UHGV virus genome: UHGV-0125821 | Length of the DNA: 64,000 bases | From: a virus | Direction: 5' to 3' (one strand) | Part shown: in pieces, positions 26,032 through 43,391 of the stretch | Layout of the letters: each line of letters begins with the position of its first letter | How positions within the stretch are numbered: the stretch's first letter is position 1 | The notes under the pieces: generated by a model | The model's database searches: none | What the model saw: only the letters and a program-made list of their open reading frames with translations | What the model was told of the DNA's origin: nothing | Program-made: the position numbers and the translations under genes

Positions 26032-26135
26032 AATACTGACTGTTGCGCCCTGGCATTATCGTGGGGTATATTTCTACGGCACCTTAGAAAAACGGGTGCC
26101 GGGATTGGAACCCCGGATAATGCAAAAGGCGACAC

Positions 26136-26160
26136 AGACGCCGAAAGCGTCTTTTTTTTT
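26136..26160 (+). terminator. intrinsic terminator
   Basis: GACGC cgaaa GCGTC followed by T9. Confidence 0.6.
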
Positions 26161-26345
26161 GTGTCATGCCATCGCACAGCCATACGTAGCGTTTAGCTCA
26201 GAGATCAATGGTAGTGCTGGCTGGGCTGCCGAAAGGCAGGCCGGTTCCCTTTTGCGCCGGTAGTTCCAACCCAGTCAGTGCTACCGCCATTGAGATTGGA
26301 ACCTCACGCGGTAGCTCCTTAAATTAGCAAAAGGAGGCTGCCAAT

Positions 26346-35876: not shown

Positions 35877-36782
35877 ATGAGATCAGTCGCTTTCAAAAAT
35901 ATCTTCATCTATCGTCTTTCACGCGAAGTTAGCTGGGATACTGCAGAAGTAAATGCAGCCCTTAGCAAGTTTGTGTTTACCCCATGCGGTTCTCAGGATA
36001 TGGCTAAAGCTGGTTGGACCTCCGTTCTTGGTGACAACCTCACCCATGAATACCAGGGTTTTCTTCTGATACAGCATAAACGAGAGGAAAAAATCCTACC
36101 CTCTCAAGTGCTCAAAGAAGAGTTACAGAAAAAAATCCTGACACTTGAAGAAGAGCAAGACAGAAAGCTGAAGAAGACTGAAAAAGATTCGCTGAAGGAT
36201 GAAGTGCTTCACTCTCTGCTTCCTCGTGCTTTCACGAGAAAATCAGTCGCTAAAATCCTGATAGACCGAAGCAATCATCTGGTTTTTGTCGAGGCCAGCA
36301 GTGCTAAAAAAGCAGAGGATCAGCTGGCTTTGTTACGGAAATCGCTTGGCAGCTTGCCCGTTGTCCCCTTCTCTCCGAAAGACCCATTAGAACTGACCAT
36401 CACTGGCTGGATTAAAAATGGCTTCCCGAACGGTTTCCGTGCCGGTGAGGAAGCGACCTTAAAAGCATTGCTTGATGATGGCGGCGCGGTCCGCTGCAAA
36501 AAAGTGGACCTGCTATCCGACGAGATCATGAGTCATATAGAAGCTGGTAAGGTTGCAACCACAGTTGCGGTTAACTGGCAAGACCGTGCATTTTTCAGAC
36601 TGAATGACGATATGAGTATCAAGGCTTTGTCGTTCAGCGACGAATTGTACGACCAGAACGACGATATTGATCGAGAGGATGTTGCGCAACGATTTGACGC
36701 TGACTTTATCCTGTTTACTGCTGAATTATCCGCGATGTTCACTTCGCTGGTGGAGGCCGTTGGTGGTGAAGCTGAACGTTAA
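35877..36782 (+). CDS. rdgC: recombination-associated protein RdgC
   Basis: [14 protein letters not shown] ... [21 protein letters not shown] ... [18 protein letters not shown] parallels E. coli RdgC. Confidence 0.9.
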
Positions 36783-36795
36783 CAATAGACCTCTG

Positions 36796-37446
36796 ATGGT
36801 GAGTCTTTGTGATTTCACGGGGAAAATGGTCGCCCCCTGGCTGGAGCATGGTATAGATGCTGTTATCGTCGATCCACAACACGCAGAGACCAGAGATGAG
36901 CTGATGCAATCAGGCGCAGTTCTGACACGTATCAGTGCGATTATCGATAGTGATGAAGTTTATGCTTTTCTCCGAAATAATTTACAACGTATTGTGTTTT
37001 TAGCTGGTTTTCCGCCGTGCACGGACCTTGCTGTTTCCGGTGCGCGCTGGTTTGCGCATAAGGCTGACAAAGATCCGTTTTTCCAGTTCAAAGCAATGCA
37101 GGTTGTCTGGCAGTGTTATGACATTGCAAAGATGATCGGTTGTCCGTACATGATTGAAAATCCGGTCAGCAAAATATCGACATTCTGGCGTAAGCCAGAT
37201 CACATCTTTCACCCTTACTTCTTCACTGCATATTGTCAGGAAGATAACTACACCAAAAAAACATGCCTCTGGAGCGGCCAGGGCTTTGTCATGCCTGATG
37301 CCCTAATGGACGAATCATTAGGCAAGCCAGATAACAGAATCCATGCCGCGCCACCAGGGCCTGACAGGGCTAATTTTCGAAGTGCTACTCCACATGGATT
37401 CGCAAAGGCAGTTTTCGAAGCGAATAAGGGGGTGCTCTATGAGTAA
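36796..37446 (+). CDS. small C5-cytosine-methyltransferase-like protein
   Basis: FTG, GFPPC and ENP motif-like segments; too short for a full MTase; start set at MVSLCDF. Confidence 0.4.
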   Translation: MVSLCDFTGKMVAPWLEHGIDAVIVDPQHAETRDELMQSGAVLTRISAIIDSDEVYAFLRNNLQRIVFLAGFPPCTDLAVSGARWFAHKADKDPFFQFKAMQVVWQCYDIAKMIGCPYMIENPVSKISTFWRKPDHIFHPYFFTAYCQEDNYTKKTCLWSGQGFVMPDALMDESLGKPDNRIHAAPPGPDRANFRSATPHGFAKAVFEANKGVLYE

Positions 37447-38344
37447 ATCTATAGCAAGCATAGCCATAGAAAAACAGGATACGATGGCTGAAATTAGCTA
37501 TATGCGCACCATTCGGACTCCGGATGAATATGAGCGTCCGATATTCAAATGGGTAGGTGGTAAATTCTCAGAATTGCCTACAGTGCTTGAGCATCTACCA
37601 CACGGTAAGCGGTTAATAGAACCATTCGTTGGTGGCGGTTCCGTATTTACGAATGCAGGATTTTGCCACAACCTGCTTAATGATATTAACGGTGACCTGA
37701 TTAACTTCTATCAGACATTGCAGCGAGAAGGACATTCGCTCGTCACGCTGTCATATAGTTTTTTCCAAAATTACAACAACGCTGACGCTTACCTCGAAGT
37801 GCGTGAGGCATTTAACAGAGGAAAGTATGACCAGCTACATCATGCTGCCGCCTTTTTGTACCTTAATCGGCACTGTTTTAATGGCGTAACGCGGTACAAC
37901 CAAAATGGCGAGTTCAACGTGGGGTATGGCAAATACAAAGCGCCCTACTTCCCACATGCAGAGATGGAGGCATTTTTGGCTGATGACGTACTCAAAAACA
38001 CGTCCTTTGTATCAGGTGACTTTGCTGGCGTCATCGAGGCGGCTGGTGAAGGCGATGTGATTTTTTGCGATCCGCCGTATGAACCGCTGCCGGATACAGA
38101 AGGGTTTACCAGTTATTCAGGAAATAGCTTCCGTTTCGACGAACAGAAACGGCTGGTATCTCTATTGGTGGAAGCCCACCAGCGCGGCGCTAAGGTAGTG
38201 ATAACAAATAGTGGTGCGCCAAACATCCGTGAACTATATGAAGGAAACGGGTTTAAAGTACATCATATGGCAGCCAGACGGTCGGTGTCCTGCAAGGCGT
38301 CAACACGTGTAGTTGCTAACGATATAATTGCAATAATGAAGTAA
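37439..38344 (+). CDS. dam: DNA adenine methyltransferase (Dam family)
   Basis: FKWVGGK, EPFVGGGSVF, DPPY motifs; start set at MSKSIAS. Confidence 0.85.
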   Translation: MSKSIASIAIEKQDTMAEISYMRTIRTPDEYERPIFKWVGGKFSELPTVLEHLPHGKRLIEPFVGGGSVFTNAGFCHNLLNDINGDLINFYQTLQREGHSLVTLSYSFFQNYNNADAYLEVREAFNRGKYDQLHHAAAFLYLNRHCFNGVTRYNQNGEFNVGYGKYKAPYFPHAEMEAFLADDVLKNTSFVSGDFAGVIEAAGEGDVIFCDPPYEPLPDTEGFTSYSGNSFRFDEQKRLVSLLVEAHQRGAKVVITNSGAPNIRELYEGNGFKVHHMAARRSVSCKASTRVVANDIIAIMK

Positions 38345-38392: not shown

Positions 38393-40054
38393 TTAACCTA
38401 ACTTCGCCCAGGTATCACGCAGCCCAACGGTGCGGTTAAATACCGGTTTTTCCGCCGTAGAATGGCGGCTGTCGAGGCAGAAATAACCTTCACGCTCAAA
38501 CTGGAATGCTTTACCCGCTACCGCTTCTTTCAGCGACGGTTCAGCAAAACCCTGTTTGATCACCAGCGATTCCGGGTTAATCACCGACAGGAAATCATCC
38601 GCAGCACCTGGGTTCGGCACGCTGAACAGACGATCGTACAGGCGGATTTCAACCGGCAGCGCATGTGCCGCGCTCACCCAGTGAATAACGCCTTTCACTT
38701 TACGACCATCTGCCGGATCTTTGCTTAAGGTGTCGGCGTCATAAGTACAGAAGATGGTGGTGATATTGCCTTCGGCATCTTTCTCCACGCGTTCAGCCTT
38801 AATGACGTAAGCATTACGCAGACGCACTTCTTTACCCAGCACCAGACGTTTGTACTGCTTGTTAGCTTCTTCGCGGAAATCGGCGCGGTCGATCCAAATC
38901 TCACCGCTAAACGGCACCTGACGGCTACCCATTTCCGGTTTGTTCGGATGGTTCGGCATGGTGACCATTTCGCCTTCGCCCTGGTAGTTTTCGATAACCA
39001 GTTTCACCGGATCGATAACCGCCATTGCGCGCGGCGCATTTTCGTTGAGATCTTCACGGATGCAGGATTCCAGCGACGCCATCTCAATGGTGTTGTCCTG
39101 CTTGGTCACGCCGATGCGTTTGCAGAACTCACGAATAGAAGCCGCAGTGTAACCACGACGACGCAGACCGGAAATGGTCGGCATACGCGGGTCATCCCAG
39201 CCTTCAACGTGCTTGTCGGTCACCAGCAGGTTCAGCTTACGCTTGGACATCACGGTGTATTCCAGATTCAGGCGCGAGAATTCGTACTGGCGCGGGTGAA
39301 CAGGAATGGTGATGTTGTCCAGCACCCAGTCGTACAGGCGACGGTTGTCCTGGAACTCAAGCGTACACAGAGAGTGCGTAATACCTTCCAGCGCATCGCT
39401 GATGCAATGGGTGAAGTCGTACATCGGGTAGATGCACCACTTGTTGCCAGTCTGGTGGTGTTCAGCAAATTTAATGCGGTACAGCACCGGATCGCGCATT
39501 ACGATAAATGGCGACGCCATGTCGATTTTCGCACGCAGGCAGGCTTTACCTTCTTCAAAACCACCGGTACGCATTTTTTCGAACAGCGCCAGGTTCTCTT
39601 CAACGCTGCGGTCGCGGTACGGGCTGTTTTTACCCGGCTGCGTCAGGGTGCCGCGGTATTCGCGGATCTGTTCCGGCGTCAGTTCATCAACGTACGCCAG
39701 GCCTTTATTGATCAGTTCGATCGCATAGGCGTGGAGCTGATCAAAATAATCGGAGGAGTAACGGACGTTACCAGACCAGTGAAAACCTAACCACTCAACG
39801 TCGTTTTTGATCGACTCAACATACTCGATATCTTCTTTTACCGGGTTAGTGTCGTCGAAACGCAGGTTGCACTGGCCTTTATAGTCCTGGGCGATCCCGA
39901 AGTTCAGGCAGATAGATTTCGCATGACCAATATGCAGATAGCCATTCGGTTCCGGCGGGAAACGGGTATGTACTGTGGTGTGCTTACCACTGGCCAGATC
40001 TTCATCGATGATCTGACGAATAAAGTTAGTCGGGCGGGCTTCTGCCTCACTCAT
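38393..40054 (-). CDS. glnS: glutaminyl-tRNA synthetase
   Basis: 553 aa essentially identical to enterobacterial GlnS as recalled; last residues read KLG. Confidence 0.95.
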
Positions 40055-40225
40055 TGTGGATTCCTCAAAGCGTAAACTACGTATAACAGCGTATGATCTT
40101 ATAAGCCGAATAGGCTGACAACCACTAGTTGATTAGAAATTGCTTTCTATCGTTATTTCAATAATGAGCTTTTTCATGAAGCCCACTTTTGCGCATAAGT
40201 AAATTAATGACAAATGGTACACAAT

Positions 40226-40285
40226 TGGAACCAAAAAGGATGTAAAGGTGCACCAAATTAGTGGTGTATTGGTGCACCTTTGGTT
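40226..40285. repeat. GGTGCACC-type short repeats
   Basis: TTGGAACCA, GGTGCACCA, GGTGCACC downstream of parG-like gene. Confidence 0.4.
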
Positions 40286-40322
40286 CAAGACTTTTTAAGT
40301 TCTAAAACCAACCTGAAAGACT

Positions 40323-40610
40323 TTATTTTGCTTCCTCAGACTCCGCTAACATGAGGATAGCATGGCGGATCATATTCAATTTGCTGCGATTATGCTTTTT
40401 ACTTAACGCATCAAGTACCTGGTACTCGTATTCATTGAAACCAACACGAATAGATTTAAAATCACGTGGAGCGTCCTTATCGAGCACTTTGTTGTCTTCT
40501 GGTTGCTCACCTGGCACCAAATCAGCCTTACTGGCAAAATCCTCAATTCGGCGTTCAAGATCGGGGTCTTTTACTTCGGGGGCTTTTACCGATTTACGAG
40601 GCTTAATCAC
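40323..40610 (-). CDS. parG: ParG-like ribbon-helix-helix partition protein
   Basis: C-terminal RHH-like SIRVGFNEYEYQVLDALSKKHNRSKLNMIRHAI; coupled to ParF-like gene. Confidence 0.7.
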   Translation of the reverse strand: MIKPRKSVKAPEVKDPDLERRIEDFASKADLVPGEQPEDNKVLDKDAPRDFKSIRVGFNEYEYQVLDALSKKHNRSKLNMIRHAILMLAESEEAK

Positions 40611-41244
40611 TTAATAACTCCTTAACCAACATCTGGATTTCACCTTTAGCTTTCCCGTTGTCCATCTCAACAACGCCCTTCCCTTCAGCCATGCAATCGC
40701 GGTAAACCTTACGATCACGAATGATGGTTTTCAGCAACTTCAGTTGCGGATATTCAGCCAGGTACTCTTTGGCCTCATTGGTTTCATTCACAACCGGATT
40801 GGATGGGGCCATTGTTAAGACTGCGAACGCCTTAATGCTAGGATTAGGCATCAGGTCCAAAGCCTCTTCAAACACTTCAACAAAGTGTGCCAGCGTGTCT
40901 AAATCTGGTTGAGATGGTCTGAATGGGACCAACACAATATCTGCAGCGGTTATGCCTGTACGCATCTCTTTGCTATCGCGCCCGGCTGTATCAACAACTA
41001 CAAATTCATAACGCTTATCCAGATCGAGAAGTGTTTCTCGAATATTACCAAACTTCTGGACACAATGAATAACAGGAGAAACCTCTGCCGTGTTACGGTC
41101 AGCTGCCCAGCGGGCAGCTGTTCCTTGCTTGTCTGCATCTAGTAACACTACATCCTTATTTGCGCGGGCAAGCTCCGCACAGATGTTTACGCTTGTGGTT
41201 GATTTTCCACAGCCACCTTTTTGGCTGACTACCAATATAATCAT
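40603..41244 (-). CDS. parF: ParF-like (type Ib ParA) partition ATPase
   Basis: Walker A KGGCGKST; start set at ATG with SD GAGGAA. Confidence 0.8.
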   Translation of the reverse strand: MIILVVSQKGGCGKSTTSVNICAELARANKDVVLLDADKQGTAARWAADRNTAEVSPVIHCVQKFGNIRETLLDLDKRYEFVVVDTAGRDSKEMRTGITAADIVLVPFRPSQPDLDTLAHFVEVFEEALDLMPNPSIKAFAVLTMAPSNPVVNETNEAKEYLAEYPQLKLLKTIIRDRKVYRDCMAEGKGVVEMDNGKAKGEIQMLVKELLSD

Positions 41245-41404
41245 ATCCGTTCCTCGGTGTGATTTTGGTATCAAAACGGTTCCAGATAAGAGCCTTTTTG
41301 ATGCGGGACAGGCTCTATAATGGAGTCATGAATGTTTGGCAAAGTATAACATCAATCAGACCAAATACACCTTATATTGCATCCTATTTAACACGAAATC
41401 AGCC

Positions 41405-41485
41405 CCAAATTGGAACCAGATACAAAACTGCACCATAACAGCACCTAACTGGTGCCAGATAAACACCAATTAGGCACCATTAAGG
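41405..41485. repeat. centromere-like array of GG(T/C)(G/A)CCA motifs upstream of parF
   Basis: TGGAACCAG, TGCACCAT, GGTGCCAG, ACACCAAT, GGCACCAT. Confidence 0.45.
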
Positions 41486-41513
41486 CATAAAAAAGGCTGC
41501 AATTTGCAGCCTT
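41485..41513 (-). terminator. intrinsic terminator after parR
   Basis: AAGGCTGC aattt GCAGCCTT followed by T-run on minus strand. Confidence 0.55.
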
Positions 41514-41531
41514 AAACCAGCACATCTTCTG

Positions 41532-41876
41532 TCAATCAGGTAGAGAGTCAGCCAGATTGCGCGCCGACGCGCTTTTGGCAACAACTTGCTCCTTCACTGG
41601 CTCAATGGAGGCAGGGCGCTCCTCAACCGCAGCTGGTAGTTCCAGGAAGGATGCCAGCATTTTTCGGATCAGCTCCGGATTATTATCTTCGGTCAGCAGG
41701 GAAGCCAGTAATCCTGGAAGCCTGCTATCGACTTCTCCCAGCGCAAGCCCTGCCAACAATGCGGTTCTTGCCATATCGCTATGTTTTTTTATCTTCTCGC
41801 TCGCCGCCTTTTCATTAGCATAAGCCTCTGGGCGAAGATAAATCATCACTTTCTTACGTTCCTGAGACATGGACAT
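41532..41876 (-). CDS. parR: ParR/StbB-like centromere-binding protein
   Basis: ARTALLAGLALGEVDSRLPGLLASLLTE parallels R1 ParR. Confidence 0.7.
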   Translation of the reverse strand: MSMSQERKKVMIYLRPEAYANEKAASEKIKKHSDMARTALLAGLALGEVDSRLPGLLASLLTEDNNPELIRKMLASFLELPAAVEERPASIEPVKEQVVAKSASARNLADSLPD

Positions 41877-41883
41877 TACCTCG

Positions 41884-42864
41884 TTAACCGATTGCTTTCA
41901 GGCCATGAACAAGAGCAAGTTGCGGGTCATCCGCCACGAAGAAACGGTCATCACGAATATTAACTTGCTCGCGAATTGCATCTGCCACCAGCGGTGCGCC
42001 ACCACCGATCACCATGACATGCGTATATCCTTTAAAGTCGCCAATCACATCAAGAACGCGGGTACGCAGACGGTCAATGCTTGCGGCAATGGCCTTTTTC
42101 ACATCACCAATCGCTGATGGGTCATTGATATTGTCGTTCAGATAATCTTCATCGTGGCGGTTAATAATGAGCTGATCGACATTGTAATTTGACGTTTCGG
42201 TATTGGCTCTGGCAAGTGCTTGCCTTACTTCCCTGGTAACCAGAGAGACGCCAAGATTCGAATCGCCAAAAACACGGGAAACTGCCGTCATTTGCCCGGC
42301 GACCATTGAAACATCAAGGGTAGTTCCACCCAAATCGACGATAAGAACAGAATGGGCAGGGTTCAGATTGTCGCACAGGCCAATTCCTGCCGGAATAGAC
42401 TCCGGGCGTACCGTAACTTTCTTAATCGTGAACACATTGCCTTTATTCAGCGTGACGGGGCGCATAAGGCTGGCTTTCTTGCGCTCGATGTTATCGAGAT
42501 TGTATTGCGCGTCGTCGTCGTAAAACTCCGCCAGAGGCAGCGTGACCACAATTTCTACTTCCTGCGGCTCAATGCCACTTGTCAGCAGGGCATGGTGAAC
42601 AGCCAGGACGTTAAGCGGGCTGTATTGCCATTCCACGTTATTCGTCGGCAGAACATCTGGCGAGATCAAATCATACGAATACTTTTCGTCGTCAATGACA
42701 TAGTTAAACGGCTTGCCCGCACCAAATGTTGCTGACCATCCGCGCTTAAAGCTGTTAGGGCTGATGTGAGTGCGAGTTTCCCCGTCGTGCTCCCACAGCA
42801 TTTTGATATTGGTTGAACCATCATCGATAAAAATGCGCATCTTCTTGCTCCACTTCTGAGACAC
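41884..42864 (-). CDS. parM: ParM/StbA actin-like partition ATPase
   Basis: FIDDGSTNIK ... IVDLGGTTLD ... VMVIGGGA parallels R1 ParM. Confidence 0.85.
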   Translation of the reverse strand: MSQKWSKKMRIFIDDGSTNIKMLWEHDGETRTHISPNSFKRGWSATFGAGKPFNYVIDDEKYSYDLISPDVLPTNNVEWQYSPLNVLAVHHALLTSGIEPQEVEIVVTLPLAEFYDDDAQYNLDNIERKKASLMRPVTLNKGNVFTIKKVTVRPESIPAGIGLCDNLNPAHSVLIVDLGGTTLDVSMVAGQMTAVSRVFGDSNLGVSLVTREVRQALARANTETSNYNVDQLIINRHDEDYLNDNINDPSAIGDVKKAIAASIDRLRTRVLDVIGDFKGYTHVMVIGGGAPLVADAIREQVNIRDDRFFVADDPQLALVHGLKAIG

Positions 42865-42865
42865 A

Positions 42866-43020
42866 TTTGAGAATCAAAATGCAATTTTAAAAGAGAAGCA
42901 CCCAAAAATCCACACCAAAAGAGATAAAAAAGAGTGATTATTGAGTTCATTTTGAGAATATCTTAATCACCCAATGAATGATGGTCTGACAGTGAGATTT
43001 ATTTGAGAATGAATTGAGAA
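42866..43020. repeat. parC-like repeats upstream of parM
   Basis: at least four copies of TTGAGAAT. Confidence 0.45.
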
Positions 43021-43106
43021 TACAAAAATATTCCGAAATTTAACTCTCAGTTTGAATGACGAAATAACAAAGTGATGACAATAGGAGGATAACCAGGAGG
43101 TGAAGA

Positions 43107-43391
43107 ATGAGCGCAATAGCCACCAGCGACACCCTTTGTTCTGGTCACGGAGGATTTCCGCCGCGACTGGTAGCTGAAACTGTTCCCTGGTTCACCGTTA
43201 ACGGTAAGCCAATTGTTGTAGATGGTGCCATGTTTCCCAGTCACACTGACGGTAACAGTGCACATCCAGGGGCAGCTGTATCGACGCGAGTATGGTTTTC
43301 GATAGGTGGAAAGGGAGTTGTCTGTGTAGGCGATCCGCTTTCTTGTGGTTCTGTTATCGCCAACGGCGAGGATATTTTTCAGGTTGCATAA
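43107..43391 (+). CDS. PAAR-like baseplate spike-tip protein
   Basis: 94 aa, SD AGGAGG, Gly/His-rich PAAR-like pattern. Confidence 0.6.
   Translation: MSAIATSDTLCSGHGGFPPRLVAETVPWFTVNGKPIVVDGAMFPSHTDGNSAHPGAAVSTRVWFSIGGKGVVCVGDPLSCGSVIANGEDIFQVA

Follow-up and report, generated by a model that had tools for sequence, protein, structure and literature searches.

The double par locus carried by the E. coli virulence plasmid pB171, which Ebersbach and Gerdes reportedly described in 2001, is said to consist of par1 (parM, parR and parC) and par2 (parA and parB with the sites parC1 and parC2). In plasmid R1 the parC site is laid out as two blocks of five iterons, and phage D6 is a plasmid prophage of the P1 family. 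In a survey from 2026, 971 PLSDB accessions were counted as having both a type-I system with a ribbon-helix-helix (RHH) ParB and a type II system (PMC13245405). In the case of pB171, control by the type Ib ParB extends to the type II promoter, according to the passage of PMC4270457 that cites Ringgaard et al. 2007. Here we describe a combination of the same two types in a 64-kb window, by which we mean the whole 64,000-nucleotide stretch of virus genome UHGV-0125821 that was analysed. On reading its minus strand from 43024 to 40215 one meets TCTCA iterons, parM, parR, a terminator, a TGGTGC-like array, parA, a gene for a 95-amino-acid (95-aa) protein and an array of TGGTGC and GGTGCACC units (Table 1). 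To judge from the sequence, a D6-like plasmid prophage probably has its segregation locus here, made up of two complete and separately transcribed cassettes in tandem.

Table 1. Features of the partition region and the adjoining gene, in minus-strand order (coordinates of the window).
Feature	Coordinates	Strand	Description
parC-like centromere/operator	42857..43024	-	7-9 direct iterons with core TCTCA, best copies ATTCTCAA, in three clusters
parM	42840..41884	-	318 aa, actin-like segregation ATPase
parR	41870..41532	-	112 aa from the ATG at 41870, centromere-binding adaptor of ParM
Intrinsic terminator	41493..41513	-	19 nt past the parR stop; 9-bp stem (5 G-C), 3-nt loop, TTTTTT tail
Upstream centromere/operator-like array	41355..41481	-	about 11 units, consensus TTTGGTGCC, 11-nt register
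Candidate extended -10 promoter of parA	41343..41351	-	TGTTATACT
parA	41244..40603	-	213 aa, small deviant-Walker-A partition ATPase, type Ib, ParF-like
95-aa RHH gene (D6 orf61)	40610..40323	-	GTG start overlaps the parA stop; AAGGAG 7 nt upstream
Downstream centromere-like array	40215..40292	.	GGTGCACC palindromes at 40247 and 40271 plus flanking TGGTTC/GGTAC units
glnS	40054..38393	-	full-length glutamine-tRNA ligase, TIGR00440 1067 bits

Two cassettes and the ParM/ParR pair

The first-pass annotation had proposed two complete partition systems of different types within 40200-43030, and the four genes and three repeat regions were all found where it had put them. All four par genes are full length as compared with their homologues and neither cassette is disrupted. 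Each system also has repeats of its own, as had been claimed, with TCTCA iterons by parM and TGGTGC-type arrays by parA, and the two sets of motifs do not mix. The comparison with D6 and its relatives agrees with this. Along its entire length the 3-kb par region matches Escherichia phage D6 at 98.0% identity, its identity with non-mobilizable plasmids of about 90 kb from E. coli, Salmonella and Shigella is 96-99.9%, and the genes of both cassettes are present in the four sister plasmids that we sampled (L003; L004, an E. marmotae plasmid; L019, plasmid pCUVET20-PYO4.3, NZ_CP115379.1; and L020). Among 5426 complete E. coli genomes the locus was found in 101 (about 2%), on a plasmid every time, and D6 is the sole record in the phage collection that has both this ParM and this ParA. 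It may be noted that GenBank labels the D6 genes orf58 and orf59 as 'StbA type plasmid stability protein' and 'StbB type', orf60 as 'possible ParA partitioning function' and orf61 as 'hypothetical protein'. Within the 64-kb window we found no paralogue of any of the four par proteins, and Rfam gave no RNA family within the par region.

The ParM product scores 233 bits with Pfam StbA_N and 187 bits with the ParM C-terminal domain, and it aligns end to end with the R1 ParM structures (E 1e-111, 376 bits). The parR gene begins 14 nt past the parM stop, and the ATG at 41870 is taken as its likely start because a GAGG lies 8 nt upstream and the other in-frame ATG, at 41876, is too near to that GAGG. 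ParR scores 43 bits with PF10784 (Plasmid_stab_B) against a cut-off of 25 and belongs to PHROG 8671, 'partition protein'; its sole solved relative is the ParR of pB171 (2jd3, E 1e-6). Upstream of parM we counted 7 strict TCTCA-type matches against 0.21 expected, all of them on the minus strand, and of the 8 copies of TTGAGAAT in 64 kb, 4 lie in one orientation within the 266 bp upstream of this gene. The iteron cores are at 43019, 43008, 42997, 42957, 42946, 42924, 42896, 42872 and 42861, and most of the spacings are multiples of 11 bp. This layout (3+2+2-3) is kept in L004, where ParR is only 65% identical and the sequence of the spacers has diverged. At the level of sequence, therefore, a phased direct-repeat array of the parC type precedes parM and would be its centromere. 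Two side observations concern the same gene. In L019, parM is split by a 1-nt deletion (GTCATTGAC to GTCA-TGAC, at about 4700, equivalent to about 42680 of the window), which is either a natural pseudogene in a still-maintained plasmid or a sequencing error; the parA-adaptor pair of that plasmid is intact. Also, ParM homologues of about 48% identity are present in approximately 35-kb P88-like phages (P88, 520873, Xuanwuvirus and others), outside the P1 family.

The ParA operon, its candidate adaptor and the flanking arrays

ParA carries the deviant Walker A motif KGGCGKST at residue 9, DADKQG at residue 36 and VVVDTAG at residue 82, and its best solved relatives are the structures of ParF of TP228 (4dzz, 5u1g; E 1e-18 over residues 3-211). 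The protein has a size within about 200-220 aa, the deviant Walker A motif and no N-terminal helix-turn-helix (HTH) domain, which are the features of type Ib. The gene is preceded by a GAGGA Shine-Dalgarno sequence, and a TTG further upstream, at 41274, is an unlikely start.

The protein encoded next to it is listed as 'hypothetical protein' in RefSeq and as 'unknown function' in PHROG 9169, where it has a weak Arc-like match, and the sequence itself gave no match in Pfam, NCBIfam or PDB. From its basic N-terminus (M-x-K-x-R) the protein runs through a helix and a linker to an RHH domain at the C-terminus. A word-indexed protein search returned only the D6-like copies, whereas an exhaustive profile search gave 124 clusters of relatives of 55-130 aa. 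The family shares the basic N-terminus M-x-K-x-R (R4 is nearly invariant), a helix of the form I-E-x-F-A-x-x-A-D and the C-terminal block K-x-I-R-V-P-F-N-E-Y-E-Y...G-R-S-K-L-N-x-I-R-x-A. Of 61 members, 20 matched NikA-like and 15 RHH_1, and others matched DUF6290, RHH_7, TraY and RHH_5, all of them RHH families. All four of the remote relatives sampled (33-51% identity) are encoded directly after, and overlapping, a ParA of 209-222 aa, and one of the four adjoins a Rep_3 initiator. A first AlphaFold2 run from 9 near-identical sequences was poor, with a predicted local distance difference test score (pLDDT) of 61, and a deeper alignment was needed. The modelled fold is of the ribbon-helix-helix type, and in a Foldseek search ParG (1p94) stood third in the ranking. 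As the relatives follow directly after a small ParA and match RHH families, the 95-aa protein is predicted to be the centromere-binding adaptor of a type Ib system, so that orf61 would supply the adaptor that the ParA system had been missing.

The DNA around this operon fits with such a role. We trained a weight matrix on the units upstream of parA only. These units form the densest cluster of the window, and the array downstream of the 95-aa gene is the second densest in 64 kb, as it contains 4 hits scoring 8 bits or more where the mean per 120 bp is 0.19. The window has 3 sites with the string GGTGCACC. Two of them are palindromes that lie downstream of the 95-aa gene, no more than 25 bp apart and both inside a perfect 13-bp inverted repeat. 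Autocorrelation analysis gave an 11-bp peak in all three intergenic arrays (z of 4.7 upstream of parA, with 3.1 at lag 22; 4.0 for the downstream array; 4.1 upstream of parM) and no such peak in the coding control. The GGT/ACC cores of the array upstream of parA are conserved in L003 and L004, and equivalent downstream arrays are present in both plasmids, each followed by a terminator. Two arrays that share a motif and an 11-bp phasing flank the ParA operon and are conserved in L003 and L004, and a centromere/operator role is predicted for them. Also, TGTTATACTT is invariant across three diverged alleles, and TGTTATACT may act as a promoter element of parA, in which case the last units of the array would overlap the -35 position. 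Around the parA-adaptor operons of some distant relatives of the adaptor (L013, L014 and L015), TGGTAC/TGGTGT-type motifs occur at 10-17 per kb against 1-5 elsewhere, which hints that part of the adaptor family may share a half-site.

Some results weigh against this reading of the operon. The best NCBIfam model for ParA, NF041546 ('ParA family partition ATPase'), gave 162.3 bits, which is below the curated cut-off of 180; ParA is therefore related to that equivalog without belonging to it. Comparisons of the adaptor with PDB, ParG and pB171 ParB gave no sequence-level link with any centromere-binding protein that has been characterised. Neither phmmer nor the profile of 61 sequences found ParG of TP228 (1p94), even at E up to 10, and homology with pB171 ParB was rejected at an hhalign probability of 0.5%. 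A scan for consensus promoters was at background (7 sites against 5.3 expected), and the promoter positions are guesses. The TGGTRY enrichment is missing near the operons of L005, L008 and L011, and a motif common to the whole family is only partly borne out. The adaptor is thus ParG-like in architecture and fold only. The earlier description of a ParF/ParG-like type Ib pair stands for the ParF-like ParA and for the RHH adaptor, but not as regards homology of the adaptor with ParG.

In the mechanism that we propose for the first cassette, which resembles R1 and pB171 par1, the TCTCA iterons upstream of parM, phased at 11 bp, would be the binding sites of ParR dimers. With ParR in place, the partition complex would assemble and the parM promoter would be repressed. 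Two such complexes would capture ParM-ATP filaments, and these would drive the sister plasmids apart. In the second cassette, which resembles TP228 ParFGH and pB171 par2, the 95-aa RHH protein would have its binding sites in the TGGTGC-type arrays that flank the operon on either side. The array upstream, by overlapping the promoter, would provide autoregulation of the parA operon, and the basic N-terminal tail of the adaptor may stimulate the ATPase of nucleoid-bound ParA, by which the plasmids would become evenly spaced over the nucleoid. The terminator and the unrelated repeat motifs would keep the cassettes independent, and both together would replace P1 parABS in D6-type elements. We infer DNA binding, autoregulation and a contribution to stability for each cassette, and likewise the redundancy of the two.

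Divergence of the cassettes and alternative readings

Selection on the four par genes was estimated against two diverged sister loci as the ratio of nonsynonymous to synonymous divergence (dN/dS). Wherever the synonymous divergence (dS) could be estimated, the ratio was 0.00-0.13 (0.03-0.05 for parA, 0.02 for parM against L004), dS being saturated in 3 of the 4 parR and adaptor comparisons that involve their diverged alleles. All four genes are thus under strong purifying selection. The two halves of the locus have not diverged together. Against L003 the window has dS values of 0.03 for parM and 0.17 for parR, with 1.17 for parA and an adaptor of 78% identity, while against L004 the dS of parM is 1.9, ParR has the low identity given above and the dS of parA is 0.37. 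In L003, L019 and L020 megablast matched the parMR half only, yet a diverged parA-adaptor pair is present in each of them. Of all carriers, about one quarter show a single cassette at the megablast level. From this mosaic divergence and the retention of the diverged pairs it follows that both cassettes are kept but recombine independently, and they have separate histories because either can be replaced by a diverged allele. A recombination breakpoint seems to lie near the terminator, which is itself invariant in L003 and L004 and is separated from parA by a spacer of 249 bp. We had also considered pSa1423-90k (L018, NZ_MK356557.1) as a third allele and rejected it, as every gene is frameshifted. 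In that record the whole par region including glnS is broken by frameshifts and almost no genes are annotated, which is probably due to assembly or sequencing error and not to decay.

Because parMR is near-identical and parA diverged against L003, and the reverse is seen against L004, we tentatively suggest that tandem cassettes insulated by a terminator are exchangeable modules. D6-like phage-plasmids might swap one of them to escape partition incompatibility while the other keeps the plasmid stable. This is a possibility that we hold with much doubt; if true, the incompatibility meant is that with co-resident plasmids or sister prophages.

Among the alternatives to two working cassettes, the one that fares best is that only one of them, most likely ParMR, partitions the prophage, the ParA/RHH pair being a passenger, a remnant, or mainly a transcription regulator or incompatibility determinant. 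In the D6-like plasmid pYU39_89 the pair was annotated as 'cop' and parA, and 'cop, parA, stbB and parM' are listed there as one partition system (PMC6799933), which leans in this direction. The dual-par plasmid SCP1 offers a precedent, only one of its systems being of importance under laboratory conditions (PMC13245405), and the score of ParA below the NCBIfam cut-off points the same way. A dispensable pair is, however, difficult to reconcile with dN/dS values of 0.03-0.13 for parA and the RHH gene despite saturating synonymous divergence, and with the retention of the pair in 4 of the 4 sampled sister plasmids, even as a diverged allele. Also, the ParA operon is flanked by two phased arrays as in pB171 par2, and relatives of the pair adjoin plasmid replication genes. 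We therefore regard this alternative as unlikely. Less likely again is a single cross-regulated unit as in pB171, for which there are a homologous pB171-type locus (L007), its published cross-talk (Ringgaard et al. 2007, as far as PMC4270457 relates it) and two TGGTG-like matches in the parM leader (42897 and 42911), but the cassettes are co-directional, lie a strong terminator and about 1.5 kb apart, have no common centromere and recombine independently, and the two matches were rejected as cross-talk sites for the RHH protein, being at chance level (about 0.9 expected in 266 bp) and not conserved in L003 and L004. Conversely, no ParR-type iterons were found in the flanks of parA. Two cassettes that each serve segregation remain the reading that we prefer.

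Neighbouring genes and relation to described systems

The glnS gene had been placed at the edge of the block. It does adjoin the downstream array, with a spacer of 268 bp between the 95-aa gene and glnS, but does not belong to the block. D6 and most close relatives have the gene, whereas it is missing from L003, L004, L019 and L020, even though these plasmids have both cassettes; glnS is therefore a separate cargo insertion. In the sister plasmids without glnS, the downstream array is bordered by a methylase gene or by other genes. In L003 and L004 a terminator comes after the downstream array; at the glnS junction this terminator is degraded, and a promoter-like site (TTGTCA, 17 nt, GATCAT) is seen at 40121-40093. 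Two genes lie just upstream of glnS. One is an open reading frame at 36667-37446, which in D6 corresponds to orf64, with the annotation of a putative DNA-cytosine methylase; the other, at 37343-38344, encodes an N6-adenine methylase of the D12 class (Pfam, 190 bits). L004 has a single 2.3-kb Dam-family gene in this position. As the genes at the methylase position differ, this module varies between sister plasmids. On the other side, a P1 upfC homologue at 43107-43391 on the plus strand is divergent from parM and has a PAAR motif of 26.4 bits, the Pfam cut-off being 27. Elsewhere in the window, isrK (62.5 bits) adjoins C4 antisense RNA (76.7 bits) at 26079-26291, which is a P1-type immunity (immI) region, and three tRNA genes are present at 667-817 and 2770-2842.

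If the proposed reading is right, it accounts for the inheritance of the D6 branch of the P1 family in the absence of P1 parABS. It would also give orf61 an adaptor function as the representative of a family of at least 124 clusters, and candidate DNA targets are now defined for stability and incompatibility work in a D6-type phage-plasmid. The understanding of partition itself is unchanged.

P1 parABS (type Ia) has the same role, as it segregates the unit-copy plasmid prophage of a phage of the same family. The D6-type element differs in having no large HTH-ParA, HTH-ParB or parS, and its locus is not beside repA. The D6 annotation has no P1-type parAB and no other partition genes, and there is no ParA paralogue in the window (about 28 kb outside it were judged from D6 only), in agreement with the first-pass claim of a solution different from the ParA/ParB of P1. 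With R1 ParMRC and NR1 stbAB the first cassette shares a ParM that aligns end to end, a ParR of the Plasmid_stab_B family and 11-bp-phased direct iterons clustered upstream of parM; it differs from R1 in having 7-9 iterons in three clusters (3+2+2-3), with a TCTCA core and another iteron sequence. The second cassette is like ParFGH of the Salmonella plasmid TP228 in that ParF is the best solved match of ParA, the adaptor is built like ParG, with an RHH domain at the C-terminus behind a flexible basic N-terminal part, and the upstream repeat array overlaps the presumed promoter. Here the differences are the adaptor without sequence homology to ParG, another repeat unit and phasing, and a second array downstream.

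The likeness with pB171 is in the placing of a type II and a type Ib system side by side with homologous motors, and for par2 also in a ParA operon bracketed by repeat arrays and an RHH adaptor of about 90 aa. L007, an IncFII/FIA plasmid, carries a locus of the pB171 type in which parR and parM are divergent from parA and a parB of the CopG family, its ParR being the 2jd3 sequence. The proteins of the window are 42.5% (ParM), 32% (ParR) and 43% (ParA) identical to those of L007. The cassettes of pB171 are divergent and share the central parC1, whereas those of the D6-like locus form a co-directional tandem with a terminator and private sites. The RHH adaptor comes from an unrelated family with no detectable similarity to ParB, the repeats are of the TGGTGC type as against the TCATAA/ATCACA types in L007, and the host replicon is a P1-family phage-plasmid in which the locus lies 11 kb from repA (Rep_3-type in D6). 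The design as such has therefore been known since pB171 and is common in enterobacterial plasmids, and most of the genes were already annotated in D6. What the D6-like locus adds is new but modest, namely orf61 as the predicted adaptor, three candidate centromere arrays and the independent exchange of the two cassettes.

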